Made by a program: the position numbers and the translations under genes. A model generated the notes under the pieces. It was not told the DNA's origin, searched no databases, and saw nothing but the letters and a program-made list of their open reading frames with translations. From NCBI RefSeq assembly GCF_003428155.1, contig NZ_QLIR01000001.1, positions 120,001 to 152,000 on the forward strand: a stretch of 32,000 bases of DNA, given 5' to 3'. This DNA is from Fastidiosibacter lacustris. GTDB lineage: Bacteria; Pseudomonadota; Gammaproteobacteria; Francisellales; Francisellaceae. This document shows, piece after piece, positions 907 through 32,000 of the stretch (the stretch's first letter is position 1; the number at the start of each line of letters is the position of its first letter).

Positions 907-1485
907 ATGTCAAAAAAACATCATAAAGAATCCACAAATGAAATTGAACTTGAGCAGGGTGAAGATCAGATAGAATCAGTATCCCAAATGATTGATGAAG
1001 TATTAGTACTTAAAAAAGAGAATAATGAATTGCAAACTACAATCGCAAATATGCAAGAAACCGTTGCTACTGCGGATGATAAAGTTCTGCGTGCGCATGC
1101 TGAAATGGAGAATATTCGTCGTCGTGCGCAAAAAGATGTGGAAAATGCACATAAATTTGCACTAGAGAGATTTGCTAATGCGTTATTACCAGTGCTAGAT
1201 AGCCTAGAAAAGGCGGTTGAAGTTTCTGGTGAGTCAGATGAAGTAAAGGTAATGGCACAAGGCGTAACACTTACCATGAAAATGTTAGTTGATACATTAG
1301 AGAAATTTGGTGTGATACAGATTGATCCAATTGGTGAGGTATTTGATCCAAATAAGCATGAAGCAATGGCGATGTCACCTAATCCTGAAATGGATGATAA
1401 TATGGTAATGAACGTTTTCCAAAAAGGTTATGAGCTCAATAATCGTGTAATTCGACCTGCCCGTGTCTTGGTTGTGAAAAACTAG
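907..1485 (+). CDS. grpE: Nucleotide exchange factor GrpE
   Basis: The 192-aa ORF has the typical GrpE core (LRAHAEMENIRRRAQKDVENAHKFALERFANALLPVLDSLEKA ... KGYELNNRVIRPARVLV). It sits directly upstream of dnaK. Confidence 0.95.
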   Translation: MSKKHHKESTNEIELEQGEDQIESVSQMIDEVLVLKKENNELQTTIANMQETVATADDKVLRAHAEMENIRRRAQKDVENAHKFALERFANALLPVLDSLEKAVEVSGESDEVKVMAQGVTLTMKMLVDTLEKFGVIQIDPIGEVFDPNKHEAMAMSPNPEMDDNMVMNVFQKGYELNNRVIRPARVLVVKN

Positions 1486-1509
1486 ATTTAAAAGAAGCTG
1501 AAAATAAAA

Positions 1510-1538
1510 CTTGAAAAATAAAAACGCGTCGGCATATT
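1510..1538 (+). promoter_or_regulatory. Candidate sigma32 heat-shock promoter for dnaK
   Basis: CTTGAA (1510-1515), 14-nt spacer, CGGCATATT (1530-1538), upstream of the AAAGGAG Shine-Dalgarno and the dnaK ATG. Confidence 0.5.
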
Positions 1539-1570
1539 CCTTGGCGTTAAATTAAAAGGAGATAACAACA

Positions 1571-3514
1571 ATGGGTAAAATTATTGGTATAGATTTGGGG
1601 ACAACGAATTCATGTGTTGCTGTTATGGATGGTAAGAATGCGCGCGTAATTGAAAACGCAGAAGGTGCGCGGACAACTCCTTCAATTGTTGCTTATACAG
1701 AAGGGGGTGAGATTCTCGTTGGTCAAGCAGCTAAACGCCAGGCGGTGACGAATCCGCATAATACGTTATTTGCTGTTAAACGTTTAATTGGTCGCAAGTT
1801 TGATGAAAAAGTTGTGCAACACGACATCGTTAAAAAAGTGCCATATAAAGTCATTAAGGCAGATAATGGTGATGCTTGGGTTGAAGTATTAAAAGATAAA
1901 AAAATGGCGTCACCTCAAGTTTCAGCTGAAGTGTTGCGTAAAATGAAAAAAACAGCAGAAGACTTTTTAGGTGAGAAAGTAACAGAAGCAGTTATTACTG
2001 TTCCTGCTTATTTCAACGATGCACAACGTCAAGCAACTAAAGATGCAGGACGCATTGCAGGTTTGGATGTTAAGCGTATTATTAACGAACCAACAGCGGC
2101 AGCGCTTGCCTATGGTATGGATAAACAAAAATCAGATCAAACTATTGCTGTTTATGATTTAGGAGGTGGTACGTTTGATGTGTCTATTATTGAGATTGCA
2201 AACGTTGATGGAGACAGTCAAATTGAAGTACTGGCAACAAATGGAGATACTTTCTTAGGTGGTGAAGATTTTGATGTGGCTTTAATGAATTATTTGATCA
2301 ATGAGTTCAAAAAAGAAAGTGGTATTGATCTACATAATGATACATTAGCACTTCAACGCTTACGTGAAGCCGCAGAAAAAGCAAAAATTGAACTATCGTC
2401 TACACAGCAAACCGATGTGAATTTGCCTTATATTACAGCAGATGCAACAGGTCCTAAGCATTTAAACATTAAAGTAACACGTGCTAAATTTGAGTCTTTA
2501 GTTGAAGATTTGATTAAACGTTCAATTGAACCTTGTAGAAAAGCGTTAGCAGATGCAGGCTTAAAAGTATCCGATATTACCGATGTATTATTAGTTGGTG
2601 GTCAAACGCGTATGCCTAAAGTACAAGAGGAAGTCAAAAGCTTTTTTAACAAAGAACCACGCCGTGATGTTAACCCAGATGAAGCAGTAGCAATTGGTGC
2701 TGCAATCCAAGGTGGAGTATTAGCAGGAGACGTTAAAGATGTGTTGTTATTAGATGTAACGCCTTTATCTTTGGGTATTGAAACAATGGGAGGTGTAATG
2801 ACCAAGCTGATTGAGCGGAATACCACTATCCCAACTAAGAAATCACAAGTCTTTTCAACTGCAGAAGATAATCAACCTGCTGTGACCATTCATGTACTAC
2901 AAGGAGAGCGTGAGATGGCGTCAGCAAATAAGTCCTTAGGGCGCTTTGACTTATCTGATATTCCTCCAGCACCACGTGGAATGCCACAAATCGAAGTAAC
3001 TTTTGATATTGATGCCAATGGTATTTTGAACGTATCAGCAAAAGACAAGGCGACAGGTAAAGAACAAAATATTGTGATTAAAGCATCAAGTGGCTTATCT
3101 GAAGATGATATTAATAAAATGGTGCAAGATGCTGAAGCAAATGCAGAAACAGATAAGAAATTCCATGGGTTGGTAAATGCAAGAAATGCAGGTGATAATT
3201 TATTACACAGTGCACGTAAATCAATAAAAGACTTAGCAAATAAAATTACTGATGAAGAAAAAACAAAAGTAGAAACTGCATGTAATGAACTAGAGGCTGT
3301 GTTAAAAACAGATGATAAAGATAACATTGAGTTGAAGACAAAAGCACTAGAAGAAGCATTTGCGCCGATTTCACAAAAGGCCTATGAGTATGCACAAGGT
3401 AAAGCAGATGCAACACAAAATCATACTTCATCTGATGACTCAAATGCTAAGAAAGCAGATAGTAATGTCGTTGACGCTGAATTTGAAGAAGTGAAAGATG
3501 ACGATAAGAAATAA
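1571..3514 (+). CDS. dnaK: Molecular chaperone DnaK (Hsp70)
   Basis: 647-aa ORF with [30 protein letters not shown] and an acidic C-terminal tail. This is unmistakable Hsp70. Confidence 0.99.
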
Positions 3515-4812: not shown

Positions 4813-4889
<77 letters not shown>

Positions 4890-5373: not shown

Positions 5374-5799
5374 ATGGAAACACTACGTTATCCCGCAAAA
5401 ATCACCCAAGAGGATGAGGCTTATATTGTGCTTTTCCGTGATTTAGAGGGATGTCATACTTTTGGTGATACTTTGGAGGAAGCACGTGCTATGGCGCAAG
5501 AAGCATTAGATTGCTATCTTGAAGCTTGCTTGCAGGAAGGAATTAAAGTGAATCGCCCATCAGTAAAACTTGATGATGAAACAGAATTTTTCCCATCAGT
5601 TGAGGTATCTGTGCCTCTCTTACTGCGTTTTTGTCGTGAAGACCATAATATGACGATGATACAGATGGCAAATGCAATGGATATTGCCTACCAGAATTAT
5701 CAAGCAATTGAATCTGGTAAACGCAAGAATTTGACTCTCATCACGCTCAAAAAAGCATTTGCTGCAATCGGTTGCCAAGCAAGATTACAGCTTGGTTAA
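5374..5799 (+). CDS. hicB: HicB-family antitoxin (N-terminal HicB fold plus C-terminal XRE-type HTH)
   Basis: METLRYPAKITQEDEAYIVLFRDLEGCHTFGDTLEEARAMAQEALDCYLE is a classic HicB N-terminus. It sits immediately downstream of hicA. Confidence 0.85.
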   Translation: METLRYPAKITQEDEAYIVLFRDLEGCHTFGDTLEEARAMAQEALDCYLEACLQEGIKVNRPSVKLDDETEFFPSVEVSVPLLLRFCREDHNMTMIQMANAMDIAYQNYQAIESGKRKNLTLITLKKAFAAIGCQARLQLG

Positions 5800-21864: not shown

Positions 21865-22209
21865 TTATGCTATTTCTTTTAGAGCGCTAACTGAGATTAA
21901 TTTTTGTACATCTCTACCAATCCAAACGCAGTCATCTCCTTTTAAATATTCCGCTCCTGCATGAGCTTTTGCATCATGCCAACTGATATTATGGATAATA
22001 AATAGCTGGGCTATTTGTTTTGCTGTCATGGACTCTAATACATCATGATCAACATGTGTAAAAATAGCTTTTTCAATGTGATCTTGTTGAGAGGGAGTTG
22101 GGTTAATCTTTGAGATATGCCAAGCTCTATCTATTTTTCTCCGGCGCATAGTTTTTGTCCTTAAACCAGTTATGTGATTTATATTGCCAACGACAACGGT
22201 AGCAAACAT
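21865..22209 (-). CDS. Hypothetical protein (first gene of the antisense island; likely start is the ATG at 22149)
   Basis: Minus-strand ORF convergent with terL. AAGGA lies 8 nt before the internal ATG, giving MRRRKIDRAWHISKINP... No family recognised. Confidence 0.45.
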   Translation of the reverse strand: MFATVVVGNINHITGLRTKTMRRRKIDRAWHISKINPTPSQQDHIEKAIFTHVDHDVLESMTAKQIAQLFIIHNISWHDAKAHAGAEYLKGDDCVWIGRDVQKLISVSALKEIA

Positions 22210-22264
22210 CTTTTTTAATAAATAACAATTACTTATTAAAATCTTTAATAAAAAACAATTACTT

Positions 22265-22442
22265 ATTAAAAACCACGCTGTTTATTAAAACAGCGACTTA
22301 TATTAAATTTTGATAACAAACAAAAGTTTCAATCCAACGCTATTTAAATATTTTAAATAGCGACTAATATTTTCTTTATATTAAATTTTAATAACAAATA
22401 AAAGTTTCAATCCAACACTATATTAACTGTTAATATAGCGAC
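22265..22442 (-). CRISPR. Orphan phage-borne mini-array of type I-C-like CRISPR repeat units (2 full units plus 1 degenerate terminal unit)
   Basis: Read on the minus strand. Unit B is GTCGCTATATTAACAGTTAATATAGTGTTGGATTGAAAC (22442-22404), followed by a 39-nt spacer-like segment. Unit A is GTCGCTATTTAAAATATTTAAATAGCGTTGGATTGAAAC (22364-22326), followed by a 28-nt spacer-like segment. The degenerate unit is GTCGCTGTTTTAATAAACAGCGTGGTTTTTAAT (22297-22265). The flanks match the I-C repeat pattern GTCGC...GCGTGGATTGAAAC. Confidence 0.5.
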
Positions 22443-22511
22443 CAAATCATTAAACATTATTTATTTTTTTTTGCAAGTTTTTTTTAGCCTTTCGGTGCTA
22501 TTGTAACTATT

Positions 22512-22781
22512 TTAGAACCGACGTAGATCATTCCATGCTGCCTCGATGATTCGCTTAACAGTTTCGTACATTAAATTACTATCTTTACCCTGATAGCCAA
22601 ACGAATTAACAAAGGTTGAAAAGGTAAGCTCATCTCCTGTCTTAGTTGACCATTTGCTAAAGGCATGCGCAATAGCAATTGCTTTGCTCTGAAATGCTTT
22701 CGCTGCATCATATTGTGCTAGTTTTTCACGCCGCGATTGAATTATTTCTATTTCATCTTGTGTCAATTCATTGATTTTCAT
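22512..22781 (-). CDS. Hypothetical 89-aa protein (copy 1; identical to 30924..31193)
   Basis: The translation is identical in both cassettes. It lies downstream of the 107-aa ORF under the repeated promoter. No family recognised. Confidence 0.6.
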   Translation of the reverse strand: MKINELTQDEIEIIQSRREKLAQYDAAKAFQSKAIAIAHAFSKWSTKTGDELTFSTFVNSFGYQGKDSNLMYETVKRIIEAAWNDLRRF

Positions 22782-22793
22782 ATTTTTCTACTC

Positions 22794-23118
22794 TTATCCC
22801 CAAATCATCTTGTGCTCCAATTTGTCAACATACTTAATAGACACGGCAAGTTTTAAAATTTCCCTAAGCGCATCTCTTTCTGTGAGGCACCATTCATGTC
22901 TGTCTCGCACTGTAGGCATGACATTAATACCTGCATAATCCCCGCCAACAAACTCGGCTACCCATTGCTCTGGGTAATCGTATAGTTTGGCTGGGAATAA
23001 TCCAAAAGCAGGGACATCATCTTGATTGTCTTTAAGTTTGACTAATCTAATCACTCCAAAAAAAAGTTTCGATTTCTTTCGTTTCGATTATTAGCTGCTC
23101 TTCAAATATTGTTCTCAT
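22794..23118 (-). pseudogene. Frameshifted copy of the 107-aa cassette protein (T8 instead of T7 on the coding strand)
   Basis: It shares the ATG (23118), Shine-Dalgarno and sequence of 31206..31529. The extra A at 23058-23065 (plus strand) shifts the frame after codon 20, giving ...ETFFWSD and a stop. The remaining 86 codons stay open behind a GTG. Confidence 0.7.
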
Positions 23119-23190
23119 TTTTTAACTCCTATTTTTATTGCCTGCTCACGTGAGGCTTTCCGCTACCAGGTCCGTCCTGGTATGTTTGTT

Positions 23191-23219
23191 ATTATATGGC
23201 GTTACGCCATGTAAAGCAA
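23191..23219 (-). promoter_or_regulatory. Strong sigma70-type promoter, copy 1 (TTGCTT-17 nt-TATAAT) with palindrome TGGCGTAACGCCA in the spacer
   Basis: On the minus strand, the -35 TTGCTT is at 23219-23214 and the -10 TATAAT at 23196-23191. The perfect 6-1-6 palindrome is at 23197-23209. An A/T-rich UP-like tract lies upstream. A roughly 65-nt leader with the hairpin TACCAGG-ACGGA-CCTGGTA runs before the GGAG Shine-Dalgarno. Confidence 0.7.
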
Positions 23220-23237
23220 GTGGTTTTTAAAAAAATA

Positions 23238-23486
23238 TTAAATATTTTTGAATAAAATTTTTATGAAATCATCATCCAAAGCCCTATCATTATTATGCAA
23301 GTACAACAATATCTGCTCGGCTAAATAAGATAGATTCATTTTCCCATTTTCCCATCGGTTTACATGTCTGCCTTTGCTGCGGTCGTGACCAAGCAATATA
23401 ACCTCAAGTTGCGTTTGATTTAATCCAAATTTTTTGCGCACGGATTTAACGAGCGCTGGAGTAGCTAATTGATTATTACTTTGCAT
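23238..23486 (-). CDS. Small XRE-family HTH protein (Aca-like regulator or antitoxin candidate)
   Basis: MQSNNQLATPALVKSVRKKFGLNQTQLEVILLGHDRSKGRHVNRWENGKMNLS is an XRE-type HTH. Its ATG follows the stop of the upstream ORF within TAATATG. The track start at 23501 lies inside the upstream gene. Confidence 0.7.
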   Translation of the reverse strand: MQSNNQLATPALVKSVRKKFGLNQTQLEVILLGHDRSKGRHVNRWENGKMNLSYLAEQILLYLHNNDRALDDDFIKILFKNI

Positions 23487-23487
23487 A

Positions 23488-24033
23488 TTAAACAACCTCA
23501 AGTTGTGGTTTGTCAGTTATCCATGTCCAGGCAATGCAACGCTCAAAATCGGCAAGCCACAAAAATGCATCAAGATACAACGCTCCACAGTCATGTATAA
23601 CCGTTGTGATCGACGGAGCATTAGGTATTTGCTGCGCGTTTACTTTTGCTGTCAAAAATCTAAAATGCTCTTTAATCAACATCCACGCTCGCACTGCTTG
23701 CCTTGATCTTTGGACTATATAGCTTGTTGTCAGTGGGATGCCAGCACTACTTGCCTGAGCTTGCTCATGAGGAGCGGCAGGACCATAAACAGTAACAATT
23801 AATACACTGTGATCTGTTAGTATTTTTGCAGAGTAGTGTGCTAAATCGGGGACAGGCAGAGGCTGTGCGATACGAGAGTCAATACACTTTTTGAGCCACG
23901 GTTTTAATAATTTTATTGTTTTATCGTTTATGGTGTCGCGATAGCATCTATCTTTATCACCAGTTGGCAAGGTTAAATGTGTTAGATAGTTATTGCTCAA
24001 TATTATCTCCTTTAATCTTGTTAATTTTATCAA
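23488..24033 (-). CDS. Hypothetical protein, translationally coupled to the HTH gene (likely start is the TTG at 24000 after AAGGAG)
   Basis: ORF with no in-frame ATG near its 5' end. A perfect AAGGAG lies 6 nt before the TTG at 24000-23998. No family recognised. Confidence 0.55.
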   Translation of the reverse strand: MIKLTRLKEIILSNNYLTHLTLPTGDKDRCYRDTINDKTIKLLKPWLKKCIDSRIAQPLPVPDLAHYSAKILTDHSVLIVTVYGPAAPHEQAQASSAGIPLTTSYIVQRSRQAVRAWMLIKEHFRFLTAKVNAQQIPNAPSITTVIHDCGALYLDAFLWLADFERCIAWTWITDKPQLEVV

Positions 24034-24107
24034 TCATTCCAATTTCTCTTGTGGTTGATACATACTAAAAAACTTGCAAAAAAAAATAAATAATGTTTAA
24101 TGATTTG

Positions 24108-24177
24108 GTCGCTATATTAACTGTTATTAATATAGTGTTGGATTGAAACTTTCGTTTGTTATTAAAATTTTAACATA
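24108..24177 (+). CRISPR. Solitary type I-C-like CRISPR repeat unit plus conserved spacer-like segment, in inverted orientation relative to the other two loci
   Basis: Plus strand GTCGCTATATTAACTGTTATTAATATAGTGTTGGATTGAAAC (24108-24149) followed by TTTCGTTTGTTATTAAAATTTTAACATA. Flanking sequence from 24066 is the reverse complement of about 22376-22487. Confidence 0.5.
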
Positions 24178-24225
24178 TTCGCCTATGTATGTTGTGTGCT
24201 GGCATACCCAGCACTATGATACGTA

Positions 24226-24684
24226 TTATTTATTTTTGTATATCTCAAGCGCCTTGCCCTCTAGGTACCTATATGTTTTGAGCAGGCTAGCAAAACTATC
24301 TTTTGCATCAATCCAAGTCTTGCTATTAGGAGCATTTATCAGATCGTCAATTGCTTGCAGTGCACACTCTAGCCTAGATTGCTGCTCTCGATCCTCAGCT
24401 TTTGCATAAGTCTCGTCCACTTGCTCTTTTACCTTTTTGATGTGTTGGATTGCATTGGCGCGTATTGCGTTTGCCCAATCTATTTGCTTAGGGGACCCGC
24501 TTAATTGGACTAGAGTTGCATTTGTGGTATTTATTTTGTCTTGTTTTGCTTTGTCCTTGCAGTCAGAGCAAATTAGCTCTGCTAACCATGCGGCTTTGTG
24601 CTCCCTCTCGTTACGCACATTTGTACCGGTGATGTTATGCTCTTTGGTATGTCCGCATGCGTGTGTCACTGTATAATTAGCCAT
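24226..24684 (-). CDS. Hypothetical 152-aa protein with an N-terminal CxH...CxxC zinc-ribbon-like motif
   Basis: MANYTVTHACGHTKEH...LICSDCKDK..., then LSGSPKQIDWANAIRANAI. It is driven by promoter copy 2. No confident family assignment. Confidence 0.6.
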   Translation of the reverse strand: MANYTVTHACGHTKEHNITGTNVRNEREHKAAWLAELICSDCKDKAKQDKINTTNATLVQLSGSPKQIDWANAIRANAIQHIKKVKEQVDETYAKAEDREQQSRLECALQAIDDLINAPNSKTWIDAKDSFASLLKTYRYLEGKALEIYKNK

Positions 24685-24694
24685 TTTTTATTTC

Positions 24695-24907
24695 CTATTT
24701 TTATTGCCTGCTCACGTGAGGCTTTCCGCTACCAGGTCCGTCCTGGTATGTTTGTTATTATATGGCGTTACGCCATGTAAAGCAAGTGGTTTTTAAAAAA
24801 ATATTAAGTTTTTTTTGGATAATGATGGTTAGTAGTCAATCAAATAATCCCGCACAATCTTAACTCATATTTAGCCCCATTCTTGATCTATACCATCGGG
24901 GGAGGGG
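24695..24907 (-). repeat. Promoter/leader plus about 120-bp outer arm, near-identical to 31535-31750
   Basis: By-eye alignment is identical apart from a T8 (24809-24816) versus T7 (31554-31560) run. Identity ends at CCATCGGGGGAGGG, just before the start of the downstream plus-strand phage gene in both places. Confidence 0.85.
24757..24785 (-). promoter_or_regulatory. Strong sigma70-type promoter, copy 2 (drives the 152-aa ORF)
   Basis: Same TTGCTT-17-TATAAT arrangement, with -35 at 24785-24780, -10 at 24762-24757 and the palindrome at 24763-24775. Same leader, but the Shine-Dalgarno is GGAA instead of GGAG. Confidence 0.7.
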
Positions 24908-24909
24908 AT

Positions 24910-25158
24910 ATGGATATAGACGAAGAATTACAACAGAAGAAAGCTGAATTGCAGTCGATACGCGCATCGATTAACAAAGCGTTGGCTAATGCGCATATTG
25001 CGTCATATGGTGCAGCTGGTAATACGGCAAACTATCGTGATTTAAAAAACTTGCGTGTGGAAGAATCGCAACTTGCGTTTGCAGTTAAACAGTTGGAATT
25101 AATCAAAATAGGTAAAAATCCGTATGGCATTGTAACCACAAGTTTTAGGTGGCGCTGA
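24910..25158 (+). CDS. Head-tail joining / head completion protein, lambda gpW-like
   Basis: GGGGGAGGGG Shine-Dalgarno then the ATG at 24910. Small coiled protein located between TerL and portal as in lambda (A-W-B order). TGATG overlap with the portal start. Confidence 0.55.
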   Translation: MDIDEELQQKKAELQSIRASINKALANAHIASYGAAGNTANYRDLKNLRVEESQLAFAVKQLELIKIGKNPYGIVTTSFRWR

Positions 25159-30033: not shown

Positions 30034-30741
30034 ATGGACGTGATGCAATACTTAACAGACATGCAACGGCGTTTAAATAATTTGGTTCGCGTGGGTACAG
30101 TTATTGAGACAAATGACACACGCTTAAAGGTAAAGTTGGGCGATAATAGCACGGGGTGGCTGCCGTGGGTGACACAAAGAACAGGGGATTGCGTCACATG
30201 GTGGAAGCCGTCCGTTGGTGAACAGGTGCTTGTTTTAAGTCCCTCTGGTGAGTTAAATAATGGTATTGTGCTACCTGCCATTTACACTAAAAATCAACCA
30301 ACACTAAACCAAAATGAGCACACAACGGTTTACAAAGATGGCACTCGTATTAGCTATGATTATGCGCAAAAGAAGCTATCTGTAAATTGCGTTGGTGATA
30401 TTGAAATCACAGCCGCTAAGATGCTCACTGCCGATATTACAGACTCGGTAACCATTAAAGGTGCTAAGACACTCAGCATTGATTTTGCGGGCAATATTGA
30501 CATCAAAACACCCACGCAAGTCAAAATTGATGCGCCTAATATGATTTGCACGGGCAACTTGTTAGTACAAGGTGGTTTAACGTATATGCAAGGCATGACA
30601 GGCTACAACCAAGGCGGTGGTAAAACGGCAACCATTCAAGGGGCGATTAATGTAACTGATGATGTGGTCGCTGGTGGCATCTCACTTAAAGGGCATATGC
30701 ATACTGGGGATAGTGGCGGTAGTACGTCAGCACCAAAATAA
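30034..30741 (+). CDS. Baseplate assembly protein V (P2 gpV-like central spike)
   Basis: LVRVGTVIETNDTRLKVKLGDNSTGWLPWVTQRTGDCVTWWKPSVGEQVLVLSPSGELNNGIVLPAIY is the typical gpV N-terminal OB fold, with a C-terminal beta-helix-type repeat region. Confidence 0.8.
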   Translation: MDVMQYLTDMQRRLNNLVRVGTVIETNDTRLKVKLGDNSTGWLPWVTQRTGDCVTWWKPSVGEQVLVLSPSGELNNGIVLPAIYTKNQPTLNQNEHTTVYKDGTRISYDYAQKKLSVNCVGDIEITAAKMLTADITDSVTIKGAKTLSIDFAGNIDIKTPTQVKIDAPNMICTGNLLVQGGLTYMQGMTGYNQGGGKTATIQGAINVTDDVVAGGISLKGHMHTGDSGGSTSAPK

Positions 30742-30754
30742 AAAACAATTACTT

Positions 30755-30854
30755 ATTAAAAACCACGCTGTTTATTAAAACAGCGACTTATATTAAATTT
30801 TAATAACAAACGAAAGTTTCAATCCAACACTATATTAACTGTTAATATAGCGAC
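30755..30854 (-). CRISPR. Type I-C-like CRISPR repeat unit, 28-nt spacer-like segment and degenerate terminal unit
   Basis: Minus strand GTCGCTATATTAACAGTTAATATAGTGTTGGATTGAAAC (30854-30816), then TTTCGTTTGTTATTAAAATTTAATATAA (30815-30788), then GTCGCTGTTTTAATAAACAGCGTGGTTTTTAAT (30787-30755). Confidence 0.5.
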
Positions 30855-30923
30855 CAAATCATTAAACATTATTTATTTTTTTTTGCAAGTTTTTTTTAGC
30901 CTTTCGGTGCTATTGTAACTATT

Positions 30924-31193
30924 TTAGAACCGACGTAGATCATTCCATGCTGCCTCGATGATTCGCTTAACAGTTTCGTACATTAAATTACTATCTTTAC
31001 CCTGATAGCCAAACGAATTAACAAAGGTTGAAAAGGTAAGCTCATCTCCTGTCTTAGTTGACCATTTGCTAAAGGCATGCGCAATAGCAATTGCTTTGCT
31101 CTGAAATGCTTTCGCTGCATCATATTGTGCTAGTTTTTCACGCCGCGATTGAATTATTTCTATTTCATCTTGTGTCAATTCATTGATTTTCAT
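30924..31193 (-). CDS. Hypothetical 89-aa protein (copy 2)
   Basis: Identical translation to 22512..22781. Confidence 0.6.
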   Translation of the reverse strand: MKINELTQDEIEIIQSRREKLAQYDAAKAFQSKAIAIAHAFSKWSTKTGDELTFSTFVNSFGYQGKDSNLMYETVKRIIEAAWNDLRRF

Positions 31194-31205
31194 ATTTTTC
31201 TACTC

Positions 31206-31529
31206 TTATCCCCAAATCATCTTGTGCTCCAATTTGTCAACATACTTAATAGACACGGCAAGTTTTAAAATTTCCCTAAGCGCATCTCTTTCTGTGAGGC
31301 ACCATTCATGTCTGTCTCGCACTGTAGGCATGACATTAATACCTGCATAATCCCCGCCAACAAACTCGGCTACCCATTGCTCTGGGTAATCGTATAGTTT
31401 GGCTGGGAATAATCCAAAAGCAGGGACATCATCTTGATTGTCTTTAAGTTTGACTAATCTAATCACTCCAAAAAAAGTTTCGATTTCTTTCGTTTCGATT
31501 ATTAGCTGCTCTTCAAATATTGTTCTCAT
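31206..31529 (-). CDS. Hypothetical 107-aa protein (intact copy)
   Basis: ATG preceded by GGAG and the repeated promoter/leader. MRTIFEEQLIIETKEIETFFGVIRLVKL... No family recognised. Confidence 0.6.
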   Translation of the reverse strand: MRTIFEEQLIIETKEIETFFGVIRLVKLKDNQDDVPAFGLFPAKLYDYPEQWVAEFVGGDYAGINVMPTVRDRHEWCLTERDALREILKLAVSIKYVDKLEHKMIWG

Positions 31530-31601
31530 TTTTTAACTCCTATTTTTATTGCCTGCTCACGTGAGGCTTTCCGCTACCAGGTCCGTCCTGGTATGTTTGT
31601 T

Positions 31602-31630
31602 ATTATATGGCGTTACGCCATGTAAAGCAA
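31602..31630 (-). promoter_or_regulatory. Strong sigma70-type promoter, copy 3
   Basis: -35 TTGCTT at 31630-31625, a 17-nt spacer containing TGGCGTAACGCCA, and -10 TATAAT at 31607-31602. Confidence 0.7.
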
Positions 31631-31760
31631 GTGGTTTTTAAAAAAATATTAAGTTTTTTTGGATAATGATGGTTAGTAGTCAATCAAATAATCCCGCACA
31701 ATCTTAACTCATATTTAGCCCCATTCTTGATCTATACCATCGGGGGAGGGTCTAAAAATA

Positions 31761-32000
31761 ATGAGAGGGGTAGACCGTTTTACAGGACGTGCCATTGATG
31801 ATATTGAGCACGTCCAGCAATCAATTAGAGATATTTTAACCACGCCAATTGGGACGCGTGTAATGCTGCGTAACTATGGCAGTCGTTTGTTTGATTTTAT
31901 TGACAAACCGATGAATAACCAAACGATTGTACAAGTGATATTAGCAGCAGCGCAAGCTATTGATACATGGGAGCCAAGGGTCAAACTTACGCGCGTTGTG
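31761..32000 (+). CDS. Baseplate protein W (GPW/gp25 family), N-terminal part (runs off the right edge)
   Basis: MRGVDRFTGRAIDDIEHVQQSIRDILTTPIGTRVMLRNYGSRLFDFIDKP matches the gp25/GPW signature. Confidence 0.8.
   Translation, partial: MRGVDRFTGRAIDDIEHVQQSIRDILTTPIGTRVMLRNYGSRLFDFIDKPMNNQTIVQVILAAAQAIDTWEPRVKLTRVV

Follow-up and report, generated by a model that had tools for sequence, protein, structure and literature searches.

The question raised by this stretch of the Fastidiosibacter lacustris genome is why the late operon of a prophage should carry, at two separate junctions, the same block of about 1 kb running against the structural genes, and what that block might do. Within the window (the whole stretch of 32,000 nucleotides that was analysed), a repeat search and a global alignment bore out the observation, made earlier in a sequence-only reading of the DNA, that a near-identical cassette is present twice. 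The two copies (A and B; Table 1) are 99.4% identical over about 1 kb and match throughout except for a single 78-nt unit, five substitutions and a difference of one base in a homopolymer, in agreement with the extra 78-bp unit, few substitutions and one homopolymer length described at that time. The extra unit is found only in copy A (22298-22375), and its 78-nt period was confirmed by TRF. Two of the substitutions form an adjacent pair in a pseudo-spacer (22399-22400, TA in copy A and CG in copy B), the other three lie at 23242, 23244 and 23251, and the homopolymer at 23058 is A8 in copy A and A7 in copy B. Both copies read antisense to the late operon and have the same internal order: a 135-nt promoter-leader block (P-block), an ORF of 107 codons, an ORF of 89 codons and a mini-array of hairpin units with a predicted promoter of its own.

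Although the count of two was correct, it was incomplete, as a third, partial copy at 24067-24906 had been missed. The end of the cassette had also been placed too far to the right, at 31750: the 116 nt from 31635 to 31750 are no part of copy A, and this block recurs at 24791-24906. Positions 31688-32000 of the window are 99.4% identical to the region upstream of baseplate gene W in a sister prophage, L001, from an independent assembly of 'Ca. Nebulobacter yamunensis'. The minus-strand ORFs of copy B were as had been described and, within the reach of sequence analysis, every element of the earlier reading was borne out.

Table 1. Features of the duplicated cassette and its surroundings (positions in the window).
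Feature	Position	Strand	Remarks
Copy A	22247-23255		TerL/gpW-like junction
Copy B	30737-31666		Baseplate V/W junction
Orphan 114-aa ORF	21865-22209	-	Directly downstream of mini-array A; 96.5% conserved in L001
Mini-array, copy A	22265-22483	-	Read from sequence; TRF; covariance model. From the leader end: leader 22443-22483; psiR 22404-22442; 39-nt psiS; psiR 22326-22364; 28-nt psiS; terminal psiR 22265-22297
89-aa ORF, copy A	22512-22781	-	Identical to copy B ORF
107-aa gene, copy A	22794-23118	-	Frameshift from extra homopolymer base (23058); 86-aa ORF left
P-block A	23119-23255	-
Small HTH protein, 82-87 aa	23238-23486	-	MqsA/XRE-like C-terminal HTH; TIGR03830 7e-8, below family cut-off
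181-aa-family protein	23488-24033	-	Conserved partner of leader and regulator in many phage contigs
Module C	24067-24215	+	Leader, one psiR (24108-24149), psiS, terminator hairpin (24196-24214)
152-aa protein	24226-24684	-	CxH...CxxC motif; phrog_16123, unknown function; first gene after P-block C
P-block C	24685-24821	-
Copied W-upstream region, before gpW-like head gene	24791-24906	+	Conversion tract stops at common RBS GGGGGAGGG
Terminal degenerate psiR, copy B	30755-30787	-	GTCGCTGTTTTAATAAACAGCGTGGTTTTTAAT; covariance-model match 42.8 bits
psiS, copy B, 28 nt	30788-30815	-	TTTCGTTTGTTATTAAAATTTAATATAA; read from sequence
Full psiR, copy B	30816-30854	-	GTCGCTATATTAACAGTTAATATAGTGTTGGATTGAAAC; covariance-model match 45.1 bits; type I-C repeat layout
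Mini-array leader and putative own promoter, copy B	30855-30895	-	TTGCAA, 17 nt, (TGT)TTAATG; ends 5 nt before psiR
89-aa ORF, copy B	30924-31193	-	Orphan; phrog_18280, unknown function
107-aa ORF, copy B	31206-31529	-	Orphan
P-block B	31530-31666	-	-35 TTGCTT 31625-31630; -10 TATAAT 31602-31607; RBS; palindrome ATGGCGTAACGCCAT 31607-31621; leader hairpin TACCAGGacggaCCTGGTA 31575-31593; GCCTC..AGCAGGCA motif 31550-31567
Upstream region and RBS native to baseplate W	31635-31750	+	D4 repeat, 94%; second copy 24791-24906

The hairpins of the mini-arrays, which had been called CRISPR-like, proved to resemble type I-C CRISPR repeats in their ends and layout, and published RNA anti-CRISPRs in their arrangement. 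Each repeat-mimic unit (psiR) reads GTCGC, a stem-loop and then (GT/GC)G(T)TGGATTGAAAC, and the exact ends of an I-C repeat (5' GTCGC and, beyond an internal stem-loop, the 11-nt 3' tail TGGATTGAAAC) were found in four units of the window and two of L001. In the fold of the full copy B psiR, an 11-bp stem is preceded by 2 nt and followed by a 12-nt tail; the published I-C repeats of X. citri (GTCGCGCCCTCACGGGCGCGTGGATTGAAAC) and L. pneumophila (gtcgcgccccgtgcgggcgcgtggattgaaac) share this layout (2 nt, stem, 11-12-nt tail). However, the repeats of type I-C have a stem of 7 bp and a length of 31-32 nt, whereas psiR has an AT-rich stem of 11 bp, a length of 39 nt and one extra U in the tail. Viral solitary repeats of the form GTCGC...GCGTGGATTGAAAC are all typed I-C in the accessible part of the supplement to the Racr paper (Camara-Wilpert et al., 2023; PMC10651486). 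The psiR hairpin is conserved through compensatory changes: all cells of the psiR stems are paired and 3 of the 11 pairs contain such changes. Leader and psiR of the mini-array are conserved as a single unit at all three sites in the window; the promoter within that leader is putative, recognised only from its match to the consensus. The psiR that closes the array of copy B also scores as an intrinsic-terminator-like hairpin (30766-30785, 8-bp stem; terminator scan and fold), and a distance of 14 nt separates this psiR from the baseplate V stop codon. The third hairpin unit, module C, is inverted in orientation: it runs antisense to the operon around it and converges on the 152-aa gene. A bona fide CRISPR array was rejected because the repeats vary in their stems and the 'spacers' are near-copies of one another. 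Rfam contained no family for the psiR units or the leader.

The two proteins of the cassette are candidate anti-CRISPR (Acr) proteins, or in the case of the 89-aa protein possibly an accessory one. Among 1.84 billion representatives the only relatives of the 107-aa protein were its Nebulobacter orthologue, which in L001 is 118 aa long and has its stop codon 14 nt before the first psiR, and one weak 114-aa match. The 89-aa protein has one relative, 61% identical and found in a non-phage IS605 context without psiR, and its gene is absent from L001. AlphaFold gave a three-helix model of the 89-aa protein (pLDDT 81) and a model of the 107-aa protein with a pLDDT of 61. For the 107-aa gene dN/dS was about 0.71, whereas terminase, portal and capsid gave values of 0.05-0.11; the higher figure reads as rapid evolution and is compatible also with decay, the gene being frameshifted in copy A; the 86-aa product left there is annotated in F. 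lacustris (P0002). The sequence-only reading had suggested a comparison with known Acr proteins, and neither protein showed similarity to any of them by sequence or structure; nor did PDB (sequence and fold), NCBIfam, Pfam or PHROGs reveal a gene homologous to a validated Acr. In phmmer searches of all PDB chains with the five orphans (107, 89, 152, 181 and 114 aa) and the HTH protein, the only match was a weak one between the HTH protein and Aca3. Foldseek comparison of the 107-aa and 89-aa models with the PDB gave nothing below E = 0.001, with the same outcome in BFVD for the 89-aa model, and tblastn of both proteins against phage records gave nothing. No known Acr or Aca among the PDB chains was matched by the variable proteins of related operons (as one concatenated query) or by the 181-aa family (as a profile). 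The five orphans resembled no NCBIfam or Pfam family, Pfam, NCBIfam, PHROGs and PADLOC yielded no functional assignment, and the defence-system models of PADLOC matched none of the proteins.

Each copy had been proposed to be an autonomous antisense unit, and the analysis is consistent with this: both carry a predicted promoter (TTGCTT-17-TATAAT) with an operator-like palindrome, and a predicted terminator-like hairpin adjoining the stop codon of the upstream late gene. In 5/5 blocks the two promoter hexamers (-35 and -10) enclose the 15-nt palindrome ATGGCGTAACGCCAT, an operator-like inverted repeat that overlaps the promoter. In the window this palindrome occurs exactly three times, against about 0.09 expected by chance, and the hairpin TACCAGGACGGACCTGGTA also occurs exactly three times, against 0 expected. 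A second palindrome keeps its symmetry by a double change (CTCACGTGAG versus CTCCCGGGAG). Besides the promoter, the block contains a hairpin whose position is fixed although its sequence is free, and an GCCUCCGGUAGCAGGCAGGAG element that hardly varies.

In acr-aca loci, anti-CRISPR genes are followed by the gene for an HTH repressor ('Aca') that binds inverted repeats in the acr promoter, and Aca2 also binds a stem-loop in the leader RNA. The locus described here is similar in that variable small orphans follow a predicted strong promoter containing inverted repeats, and in that the same promoter-leader serves several sets of cargo. The operon running from the 152-aa to the 181-aa gene ends in the conserved small HTH gene, a candidate counterpart of aca, and cassettes A and B use its promoter block without a regulator gene of their own. 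The locus differs in that the HTH protein is not an established member of a known Aca family (Aca3, the best PDB match, is weak at E = 0.024) and in that the 181-aa-family protein precedes the regulator. We regard the small HTH protein as a candidate Aca-like regulator of the P-blocks; some relatives presumably carry a ribbon-helix-helix protein in its place. Downstream genes in two further loci, L065 and L066, were considered as homologues of the 87-aa and 152-aa proteins and rejected as not homologous.

Phage morons are autonomous promoter-gene-terminator units between the late genes of lambdoid and P2-like phages. The cassette is such a moron, an independent unit between two late genes that is absent or different in a close relative and is bounded by a terminator hairpin, its promoter and terminator being predictions. 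On its TerL side L001 repeats the layout, having two promoter-leader blocks together with three hairpin units, and its V/W slot holds unrelated cargo, an XRE-type HTH gene; because of this different cargo, and in line with the earlier suggestion, the cassette is moron-like. Unlike the usual morons it is antisense to the late operon, occurs twice in one genome and includes a non-coding CRISPR-mimic module. The copies have evolved in concert: the 107-aa genes of A and B show no substitutions, compared with 89% identity to the L001 orthologue, and the P-blocks are 96-97% identical within the window compared with 86-89% between genomes. As the copies are closer to each other than to L001, we attribute their likeness to gene conversion, and the recent conversion or mobility that had been proposed is thus supported.

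Taking these results together we lean, with some reserve, towards the view that a temperate Fastidiosibacter phage carries the duplicated unit as an accessory cassette ('moron') of the anti-CRISPR type. Most likely the cassette would act as an RNA decoy or hijacker that, with small partner proteins, disables host CRISPR immunity. By analogy with acr-aca loci, the small HTH protein encoded nearby would probably bring about repression through the palindromes of the conserved P-block, and this block would drive the two fast-evolving orphans of 107 and 89 aa, the candidate Acr proteins. Downstream, the mini-array would use its own promoter, with psiR mimics of type I-C repeats flanking a conserved pseudo-spacer (psiS) and the degenerate repeat at the end probably serving as terminator. 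The I-C machinery of the host (Cas5c, Cas7c and Cas8c) would then process and load the mini-array RNAs, with either of two consequences: Cas proteins may be titrated into dead-end complexes, as by a Racr, or Cascade may be redirected to repress cas or safeguard promoters, as by a viral crRNA-like RNA (Cracr). The copies, including the partial third, may have arisen and stayed alike by homologous recombination or gene conversion between P-blocks and mini-array modules. Transcription, Cas processing, inhibition of CRISPR immunity and the roles of the small proteins and of the HTH protein are elements of this scheme that we only infer.

Both modes have published counterparts. The arrangement resembles acrIC5-racrIC1 (Camara-Wilpert et al., 2023; PMC10651486), a prophage mimic of a type I-C repeat just downstream of a small protein gene and in the same orientation, the gap between stop codon and repeat being 14 nt in L001 and 11 nt for RacrIC1 after AcrIC5; neither RacrIC1 nor the cassette lies beside cas genes, and both lie in an acr-like locus. 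The mimics described here stand in the structural region of a prophage, away from cas genes and arrays. Unlike RacrIC1, they are not solitary, since a conserved psiS follows every unit and is itself followed by a repeat or a terminator, and they have their own promoter-like leader and AT-rich 11-bp stems; the proteins encoded upstream show no relationship to AcrIC5, so far as they can be compared. The GTTGGATTGAAAC variant is absent from the accessible part of the catalogue of that paper. As in Cracr RNAs and arrays, to judge from the accessible text of the report (Liu et al., bioRxiv 10.1101/2024.10.29.618823), the order is psiR-psiS-psiR or psiR-psiS-terminator with a short psiS, the spacers are variants of one another, and the units lie near candidate acr genes in a Caudoviricetes prophage; in modules A, B and C and in a related unit of a more distant locus, L064, psiR and psiS are followed by another psiR or a rho-independent terminator. 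The same text reports nine two-spacer I-C Cracr arrays and does not report three modules per prophage with two of them inside a duplicated protein cassette. The psiS variants described here start TTTCG, TTTTG or TTTTA and differ at positions 4-5, and the spacers of the published arrays are likewise aimed at variants of the cas locus. A Cracr is defined by a psiS match to the host cas or CreT promoter or to CreR/CreA, and our cassette is likened to Cracr arrays by its architecture; no psiS match of at least nine PAM-proximal positions was found in the window or L001.

The elements could instead belong to an ordinary moron of unrelated function (toxin-antitoxin, superinfection exclusion or regulator), with the CRISPR-like units being terminators or the decayed remnant of a captured array. 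The terminal unit and the module C hairpin do score as intrinsic terminators, the proteins are without Acr similarity, the HTH protein is MqsA-like and its gene and that of the 181-aa protein overlap in toxin-antitoxin style, and psiR is missing from most operons of the leader/181 family. We nevertheless consider this explanation unlikely. In the four units of the window the 16 defining I-C end positions are intact and the stems are altered only by compensatory substitutions, and a plain terminator would need neither the 12-nt GGATTGAAAC tail nor a promoter of its own upstream. Moreover, the antisense psiR arrangement is conserved in L064, whose proteins are only 34-39% identical to the 152-aa and 181-aa proteins: between those two genes, and antisense to them as in module C, stand GTTAGCGGGGCTTTTGCCCTGATGGATTGAAAC, then psiS and then a perfect terminator. 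An exact TGGATTGAAAC in the 98-nt spacer of L064, in that orientation, would be expected by chance about 2e-5 times. Pattern scans for more psiR units in IMG/VR, JGI metagenomes and GTDB genomes gave chance matches only, and blastn searches, of phages with the cassette and of plasmids with the psiR-psiS unit, brought up nothing of note. As IMG/VR and the JGI metagenomes contained no related units, the comparative support rests on three lineages.

A still less probable explanation is that the module is an offensive, phage-borne mini-CRISPR array, whose psiS would be loaded by host Cascade against competing phages or plasmids in superinfection exclusion or inter-viral conflict. Such virus-borne mini-arrays are a described class (PMC10651486; 10.1101/2024.10.29.618823), and the repeat-spacer-repeat order, the leader with its putative promoter and the full I-C repeat layout would all suit one. 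Real guides, however, would be diverse acquired sequences, whereas the 'spacers' are near-copies conserved between two prophages and across three sites, and at 28 nt the shorter form is below the usual length of an I-C spacer. In addition, module C and the L064 unit consist of a single repeat followed by a terminator, the form of a regulatory crRNA-like RNA. Compared as a whole with the phage collection, the cassette gave no protospacer match.

It is very improbable that short-read assembly created the second copy by mis-joining or duplicating a repeat. The assembly is a draft, the copies are about 1 kb and 99.4% identical and their homopolymer difference could be a sequencing error, but the 78-nt unit and five substitutions tell them apart, the sequence flanking each copy is unique on either side with clean junctions at a stop codon and an RBS, both lie inside one 256-kb contig, and the independent L001 assembly also has repeated promoter-leader blocks and the same TerL-side mini-array.

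Several observations count against the favoured anti-CRISPR view. The stem of psiR is longer than that of canonical I-C repeats and its tail has an additional U, psiS is AT-rich and of low complexity, the small proteins resemble no solved Acr, and the window and L001 contained no pseudo-spacer target. The lone psiS match, within the 107-aa gene, is a seed of 8 nt with a TTC PAM; L001 does not share it, and it probably arose by chance. When 185,579 species genomes were searched with the pattern GTCGCT-N17-23-GTTGGATTGAAAC, no array was returned; as the source genome itself was not returned, the scan is uninformative for the host. No cas genes were found in the window or L001. In favour of a suitable host, cas1 and cas4-cas1 are annotated in F. 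lacustris and Nebulobacter, and a seven-gene type I-C system is present in Caedibacter taeniospiralis, a member of the same family.

If confirmed, the cassette would add a lineage to the type I-C RNA anti-CRISPRs and show such RNAs multiplied in one genome inside a recombining promoter-protein-RNA cassette, and its orphan proteins would be candidates for new inhibitors of type I-C systems; if not, it would be a tidy case of moron duplication by gene conversion. The SRUFinder approach of the Racr paper looks for at least 90% identity to catalogued repeats (PMC10651486), and because the stems of psiR are AT-rich and lengthened and its tail is altered, a search of that type would probably miss these units.

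The promoter-leader marks a widespread and so far undescribed phage accessory operon of variable genes, then a 181-aa-family protein and then a small regulator, and, if the anti-CRISPR role is confirmed, this operon could mark anti-defence genes genomically, as aca genes do now. More speculatively, the 135-nt block may be a portable expression platform for the anti-defence cargo of a large operon family, one that is copied with CRISPR-mimic RNAs to new slots in the late operon to make a self-homogenising multi-copy anti-CRISPR cassette, the leader being a new cis-regulatory RNA; we put this forward as a tentative possibility. Such a leader might, for example, be controlled by the operon regulator on DNA as well as on RNA.

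The sequence-only reading had described a cassette of about 1 kb present twice in the structural operon of the prophage, and this was borne out by a repeat search and global alignment, in which 22247-23255 (copy A, between the terminase gene TerL and a gpW-like head gene) and 30737-31666 (copy B, between baseplate genes V and W) aligned end to end. The two are on the minus strand and run antisense to the late operon; what separates them is an indel of 78 nt, a pair of adjacent substitutions, a one-base difference in a homopolymer and, close to one end, three further substitutions. All of the parts originally listed (promoter, 107-aa ORF, 89-aa ORF, hairpin units and terminal hairpin) were recovered by sequence analysis. 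The interval first given, ending at 31750, does contain the cassette, but its last 116 nt (31635-31750) are absent from copy A and represent the native region upstream of baseplate W. This region is also copied at 24791-24906, before the gpW-like head gene, and 116 nt of 5' flank are now common to the two late genes; one conversion tract extends from the promoter-leader (P-block) towards the next late gene and ends at the common RBS (GGGGGAGGG). Two elements had been overlooked, a third promoter block (24685-24821) and a third hairpin unit in inverted orientation (24067-24215; module C). At the left end of copy A a 30-bp unit that is single copy in the sister prophage L001 is tandemly duplicated, probably as a recombination scar. 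The homopolymer at 23058 is A8 in copy A, compared with A7 in copy B (31469-31470) and L001, and it frameshifts the 107-aa ORF, which is intact in copy B; possible explanations are sequencing error, a pseudogene and phase variation.

L001 derives from 'Ca. Nebulobacter yamunensis' (JAMBMW), which its genome paper regards as conspecific with F. lacustris, and is ∼95% identical to the window over those structural genes that were aligned (terminase; 152-aa gene to baseplate V). Its TerL side is arranged alike (P-block, 152 aa, two small genes, 160 aa, HTH, P-block, 118 aa, three units, 114 aa), with the two small genes at the position of module C and the 89-aa gene absent. The suggestion of a moron-like organisation was strengthened by the L001 V|W slot, where cassette B is replaced by an XRE-type HTH gene with some further sequence; a putative small hydrophobic ORF, uncalled, also lies there on the gene V strand. 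As the two prophages differ at both junctions, both are variable cargo slots, and cassette B, judged by this comparison, is a moron in the classical sense. The 107-aa genes of copies A and B show no substitutions between them but reach just 89% identity with their L001 counterpart. Likewise, P-blocks are 96-97% identical among the three in the window and 92% within L001, but 86-89% between genomes, in contrast to the neighbouring HTH and 181-aa genes, which are 98-99% identical between genomes. The greater likeness within than between genomes indicates concerted evolution, in keeping with the gene conversion or mobility first suggested, and on these alignments the copies have recently been homogenised by gene conversion or recombination. 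The duplication of this autonomous antisense unit is genuine.

Read along the minus strand, the cassette comprises the P-block, the 107-aa ORF, the 89-aa ORF and a hairpin module with a putative promoter of its own. The P-block (135 nt) contains a predicted promoter, TTGCTT-17-TATAAT, whose hexamers flank a perfect palindrome (ATGGCGTAACGCCAT); a hairpin of 7 bp begins ∼8 nt past the -10 hexamer, followed by the motif GCCTC(N5)AGCAGGCA, an RBS and ATG. Among 1.84 billion representative proteins the 107-aa protein had one orthologue and one weak relative; its structure model was of low confidence (pLDDT 61), and its dN/dS against the orthologue was ∼0.71, whereas the terminase, portal and capsid genes gave 0.05-0.11. 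The 89-aa protein gave a confident predicted three-helix model (pLDDT 81); the PHROG that it matches has no assigned function, and its one relative, at 61% identity, lies outside phages. Neither protein had a significant sequence or fold match to solved structures, Acr proteins included, or matched a defence-system model. Small, fast-evolving orphans beside a repeat mimic fit Acr proteins, which is not positive evidence that they are such.

The hairpin module begins with a promoter-like leader (TTGCAA-17-TGT-TTAATG) followed by the units, which in full form consist of GTCGC, an AT-rich 11-bp stem-loop and (G)TTGGATTGAAAC. The segments between them are 28 nt or 39 nt long, are near-copies of one another and start TTTCG, TTTTG or TTTTA. 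The terminal unit of both copies (GTCGCTGTTTTAATAAACAGCGTGGTTTTTAAT) scores as a predicted intrinsic terminator and lies 14 nt from the gene V stop codon; in module C a single unit is followed by a pseudo-spacer and a distinct predicted terminator hairpin. With published type I-C repeats (X. citri, GTCGCGCCCTCACGGGCGCGTGGATTGAAAC; L. pneumophila, GTCGCGCCCCGTGCGGGCGCGTGGATTGAAAC) the units have in common five 5' bases, eleven 3' bases and a fold of 2 nt, stem and 11-12-nt tail. Across distinct units all stem positions are paired, with three pairs changed on both sides. The common ends, fold and compensated stems argue that the units are derived from, or mimic, I-C-type repeats. A normal CRISPR array was ruled out, as the 'spacers' are copies of each other, the stems vary between units and there are no cas genes nearby.

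A combination of this kind is described for two classes of viral RNA, the phage-borne repeat mimics known as RNA anti-CRISPRs (Racrs; PMC10651486) and the crRNA-like regulatory RNAs (Cracrs; bioRxiv 10.1101/2024.10.29.618823). In the part of the Racr supplement considered, the viral solitary repeats of I-C form are all typed I-C (PMC10651486). Cracrs consist of a repeat mimic, a pseudo-spacer and then a second mimic or a terminator; loaded onto Cas proteins, they repress the promoters of cas or toxin genes, and nine two-spacer I-C Cracr arrays are reported (bioRxiv 10.1101/2024.10.29.618823). RacrIC1 lies 11 nt 3' of, and is co-transcribed with, an AcrIC5 homologue (PMC10651486); in L001 the gene for the 118-aa orthologue of the 107-aa protein stops 14 nt before the first unit. 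A type I-C system in the host is plausible, since the supplement of the Nebulobacter paper records cas1 for Nebulobacter and 'cas4-cas1' for F. lacustris, and seven type I-C cas genes with a three-repeat array are reported for Caedibacter taeniospiralis, of the same family. The non-coding module mimics I-C repeats much as Racr and Cracr RNAs do, and we lean, with modest confidence, towards reading the cassette as an RNA anti-CRISPR.

A search with the 181-aa protein encoded beside copy A found three distant relatives (37-39% identical). In the contig of one, L064, the order is leader, a 152-aa-family gene (34% identical), spacer, a 104-aa gene, a 181-aa-family gene and a small gene for a putative ribbon-helix-helix protein. 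The opposite strand of the 98-nt spacer carries a promoter-like site, GTTAGCGGGGCTTTTGCCCTGATGGATTGAAAC (a 6-bp stem, then the I-C tail), a pseudo-spacer of 22 nt and a perfect predicted terminator. Module C is likewise antisense and convergent. By chance, an exact TGGATTGAAAC would fall there in that orientation ∼2e-5 times. This arrangement is the strongest argument for regarding the units as functional partners of such operons rather than as incidental hairpins. That the cassette is an unrelated moron, with CRISPR-like units that are merely terminators or a decayed array remnant, therefore seems unlikely, even with a terminal unit that scores as a terminator. An offensive mini-array is more doubtful still, and an assembly artefact is very improbable. 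No pseudo-spacer target was found in the window or L001. An I-C-type PAM (TTC) with the initial 8 nt of the pseudo-spacer of the cassette itself does occur within the 5' end of the 107-aa gene; it is not kept in L001 and is probably a chance match, though it could reflect self-regulation.

The leader is kept in L064, L066/L067 and, from IMG/VR, eleven contigs, at G+C contents of 36-64%; a twelfth exact match, L076, is without promoter context and looks like chance. In these distant contigs it consists of a promoter, a hairpin that keeps its position but not its sequence, GCCTCCGGTAGCAGGCAG, SD and ATG, with GCCTCCGGTAGCAGGCAG(GAG) before the start codon almost invariant. It matches no Rfam family, no description was found in the literature searched, and it may be an undescribed cis-regulatory leader. 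Where enough downstream sequence is available, variable small genes are followed by the 181-aa-family protein and then a small HTH protein, except in L077, where no 181-aa-family ORF was detected within 5 kb. In members other than the HTH-bearing ones and L064, small unclassified ORFs follow instead. One member adjoins an integrase and another carries putative PAPS-reductase-like and ParB-like cargo. The 181-aa family (motifs YxNHITLxTGH, PLVT, RSRQ and DFERC), which closes operons with varying upstream genes, matches nothing in Pfam or the PDB and belongs to phrog_28365, a group with no assigned function. Variable genes before a conserved regulator is also the architecture of acr-aca loci (Aca, HTH repressor), but no member matches a known Acr or Aca; the 181-aa-family protein and small regulator could also be a toxin-antitoxin-like pair. 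The family of phage accessory operons to which the promoter-leader belongs is widespread and uncharacterised, and the multi-copy cassette and conserved leader go beyond what has been described.

Locations of cassette, leader and neighbouring features (window coordinates unless a contig is named)
Feature	Location	Strand	Remarks
Copy A units	22404-22442, 22326-22364, 22265-22297	minus	covariance model
Copy B units	30816-30854, 30755-30787	minus	covariance model
Module C unit	24108-24149	plus	covariance model
L064 mimic, pseudo-spacer and terminator	1617-1694	minus	antisense between 152-aa-family and 181-aa-family genes
Leader sites	31530-31666, 24685-24821, 23119-23255; L064 ∼985-1082; L066 ∼40-137; L068-L075, L077-L079		
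181-aa-family protein	23488-24033		also L064, L065, L066, L068-L072, L074, L075, L078
Small HTH protein	23238-23486		after 181-aa-family protein in window, L001, L068, L070, L072, L074
gpW-like head gene	24883-25158		acquired baseplate W upstream region up to common RBS
30-bp tandem duplication, TTTAATAAAAAACAATTACTTATTAAAATC	22214-22271		left end of copy A; 1.9 copies, 96% matches
TTC + TTTCGTTT	23077 and 31488	plus	within 5' end of 107-aa gene
L001 V|W slot	1379-2063		XRE-type HTH gene 1480-1785
tRNA-Arg(CCG)	4813-4889		directly 3' of dnaJ
HicB-like antitoxin gene	5374-5799		after tRNA-Arg(CCG)

Two of the distant contigs carry other RNA or repeat features. In L068, isrK and C4 antisense RNA (P1/P7-type immunity RNAs) score above Rfam gathering thresholds at 396-602, ∼6.6 kb from the leader, and in L065 a 19-nt unit (TTGAAAACCTGTCGAGACC) forms three tandem repeats (2815-2875) directly 3' of the gene following the 181-aa-family homologue. 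The window itself holds host genes up to ∼10.9 kb (grpE-dnaK-dnaJ, tRNA-Arg, and genes for a HicB-like antitoxin, a transaldolase-family protein and an MFS transporter) and prophage from there on (replication/recombination genes, ParB-methylase, GpA-type large terminase, portal, protease-capsid fusion, baseplate V and baseplate W/gp25). The tRNA-Arg(CCG) and HicB-like antitoxin genes may form a small integrated island, apart from the prophage.
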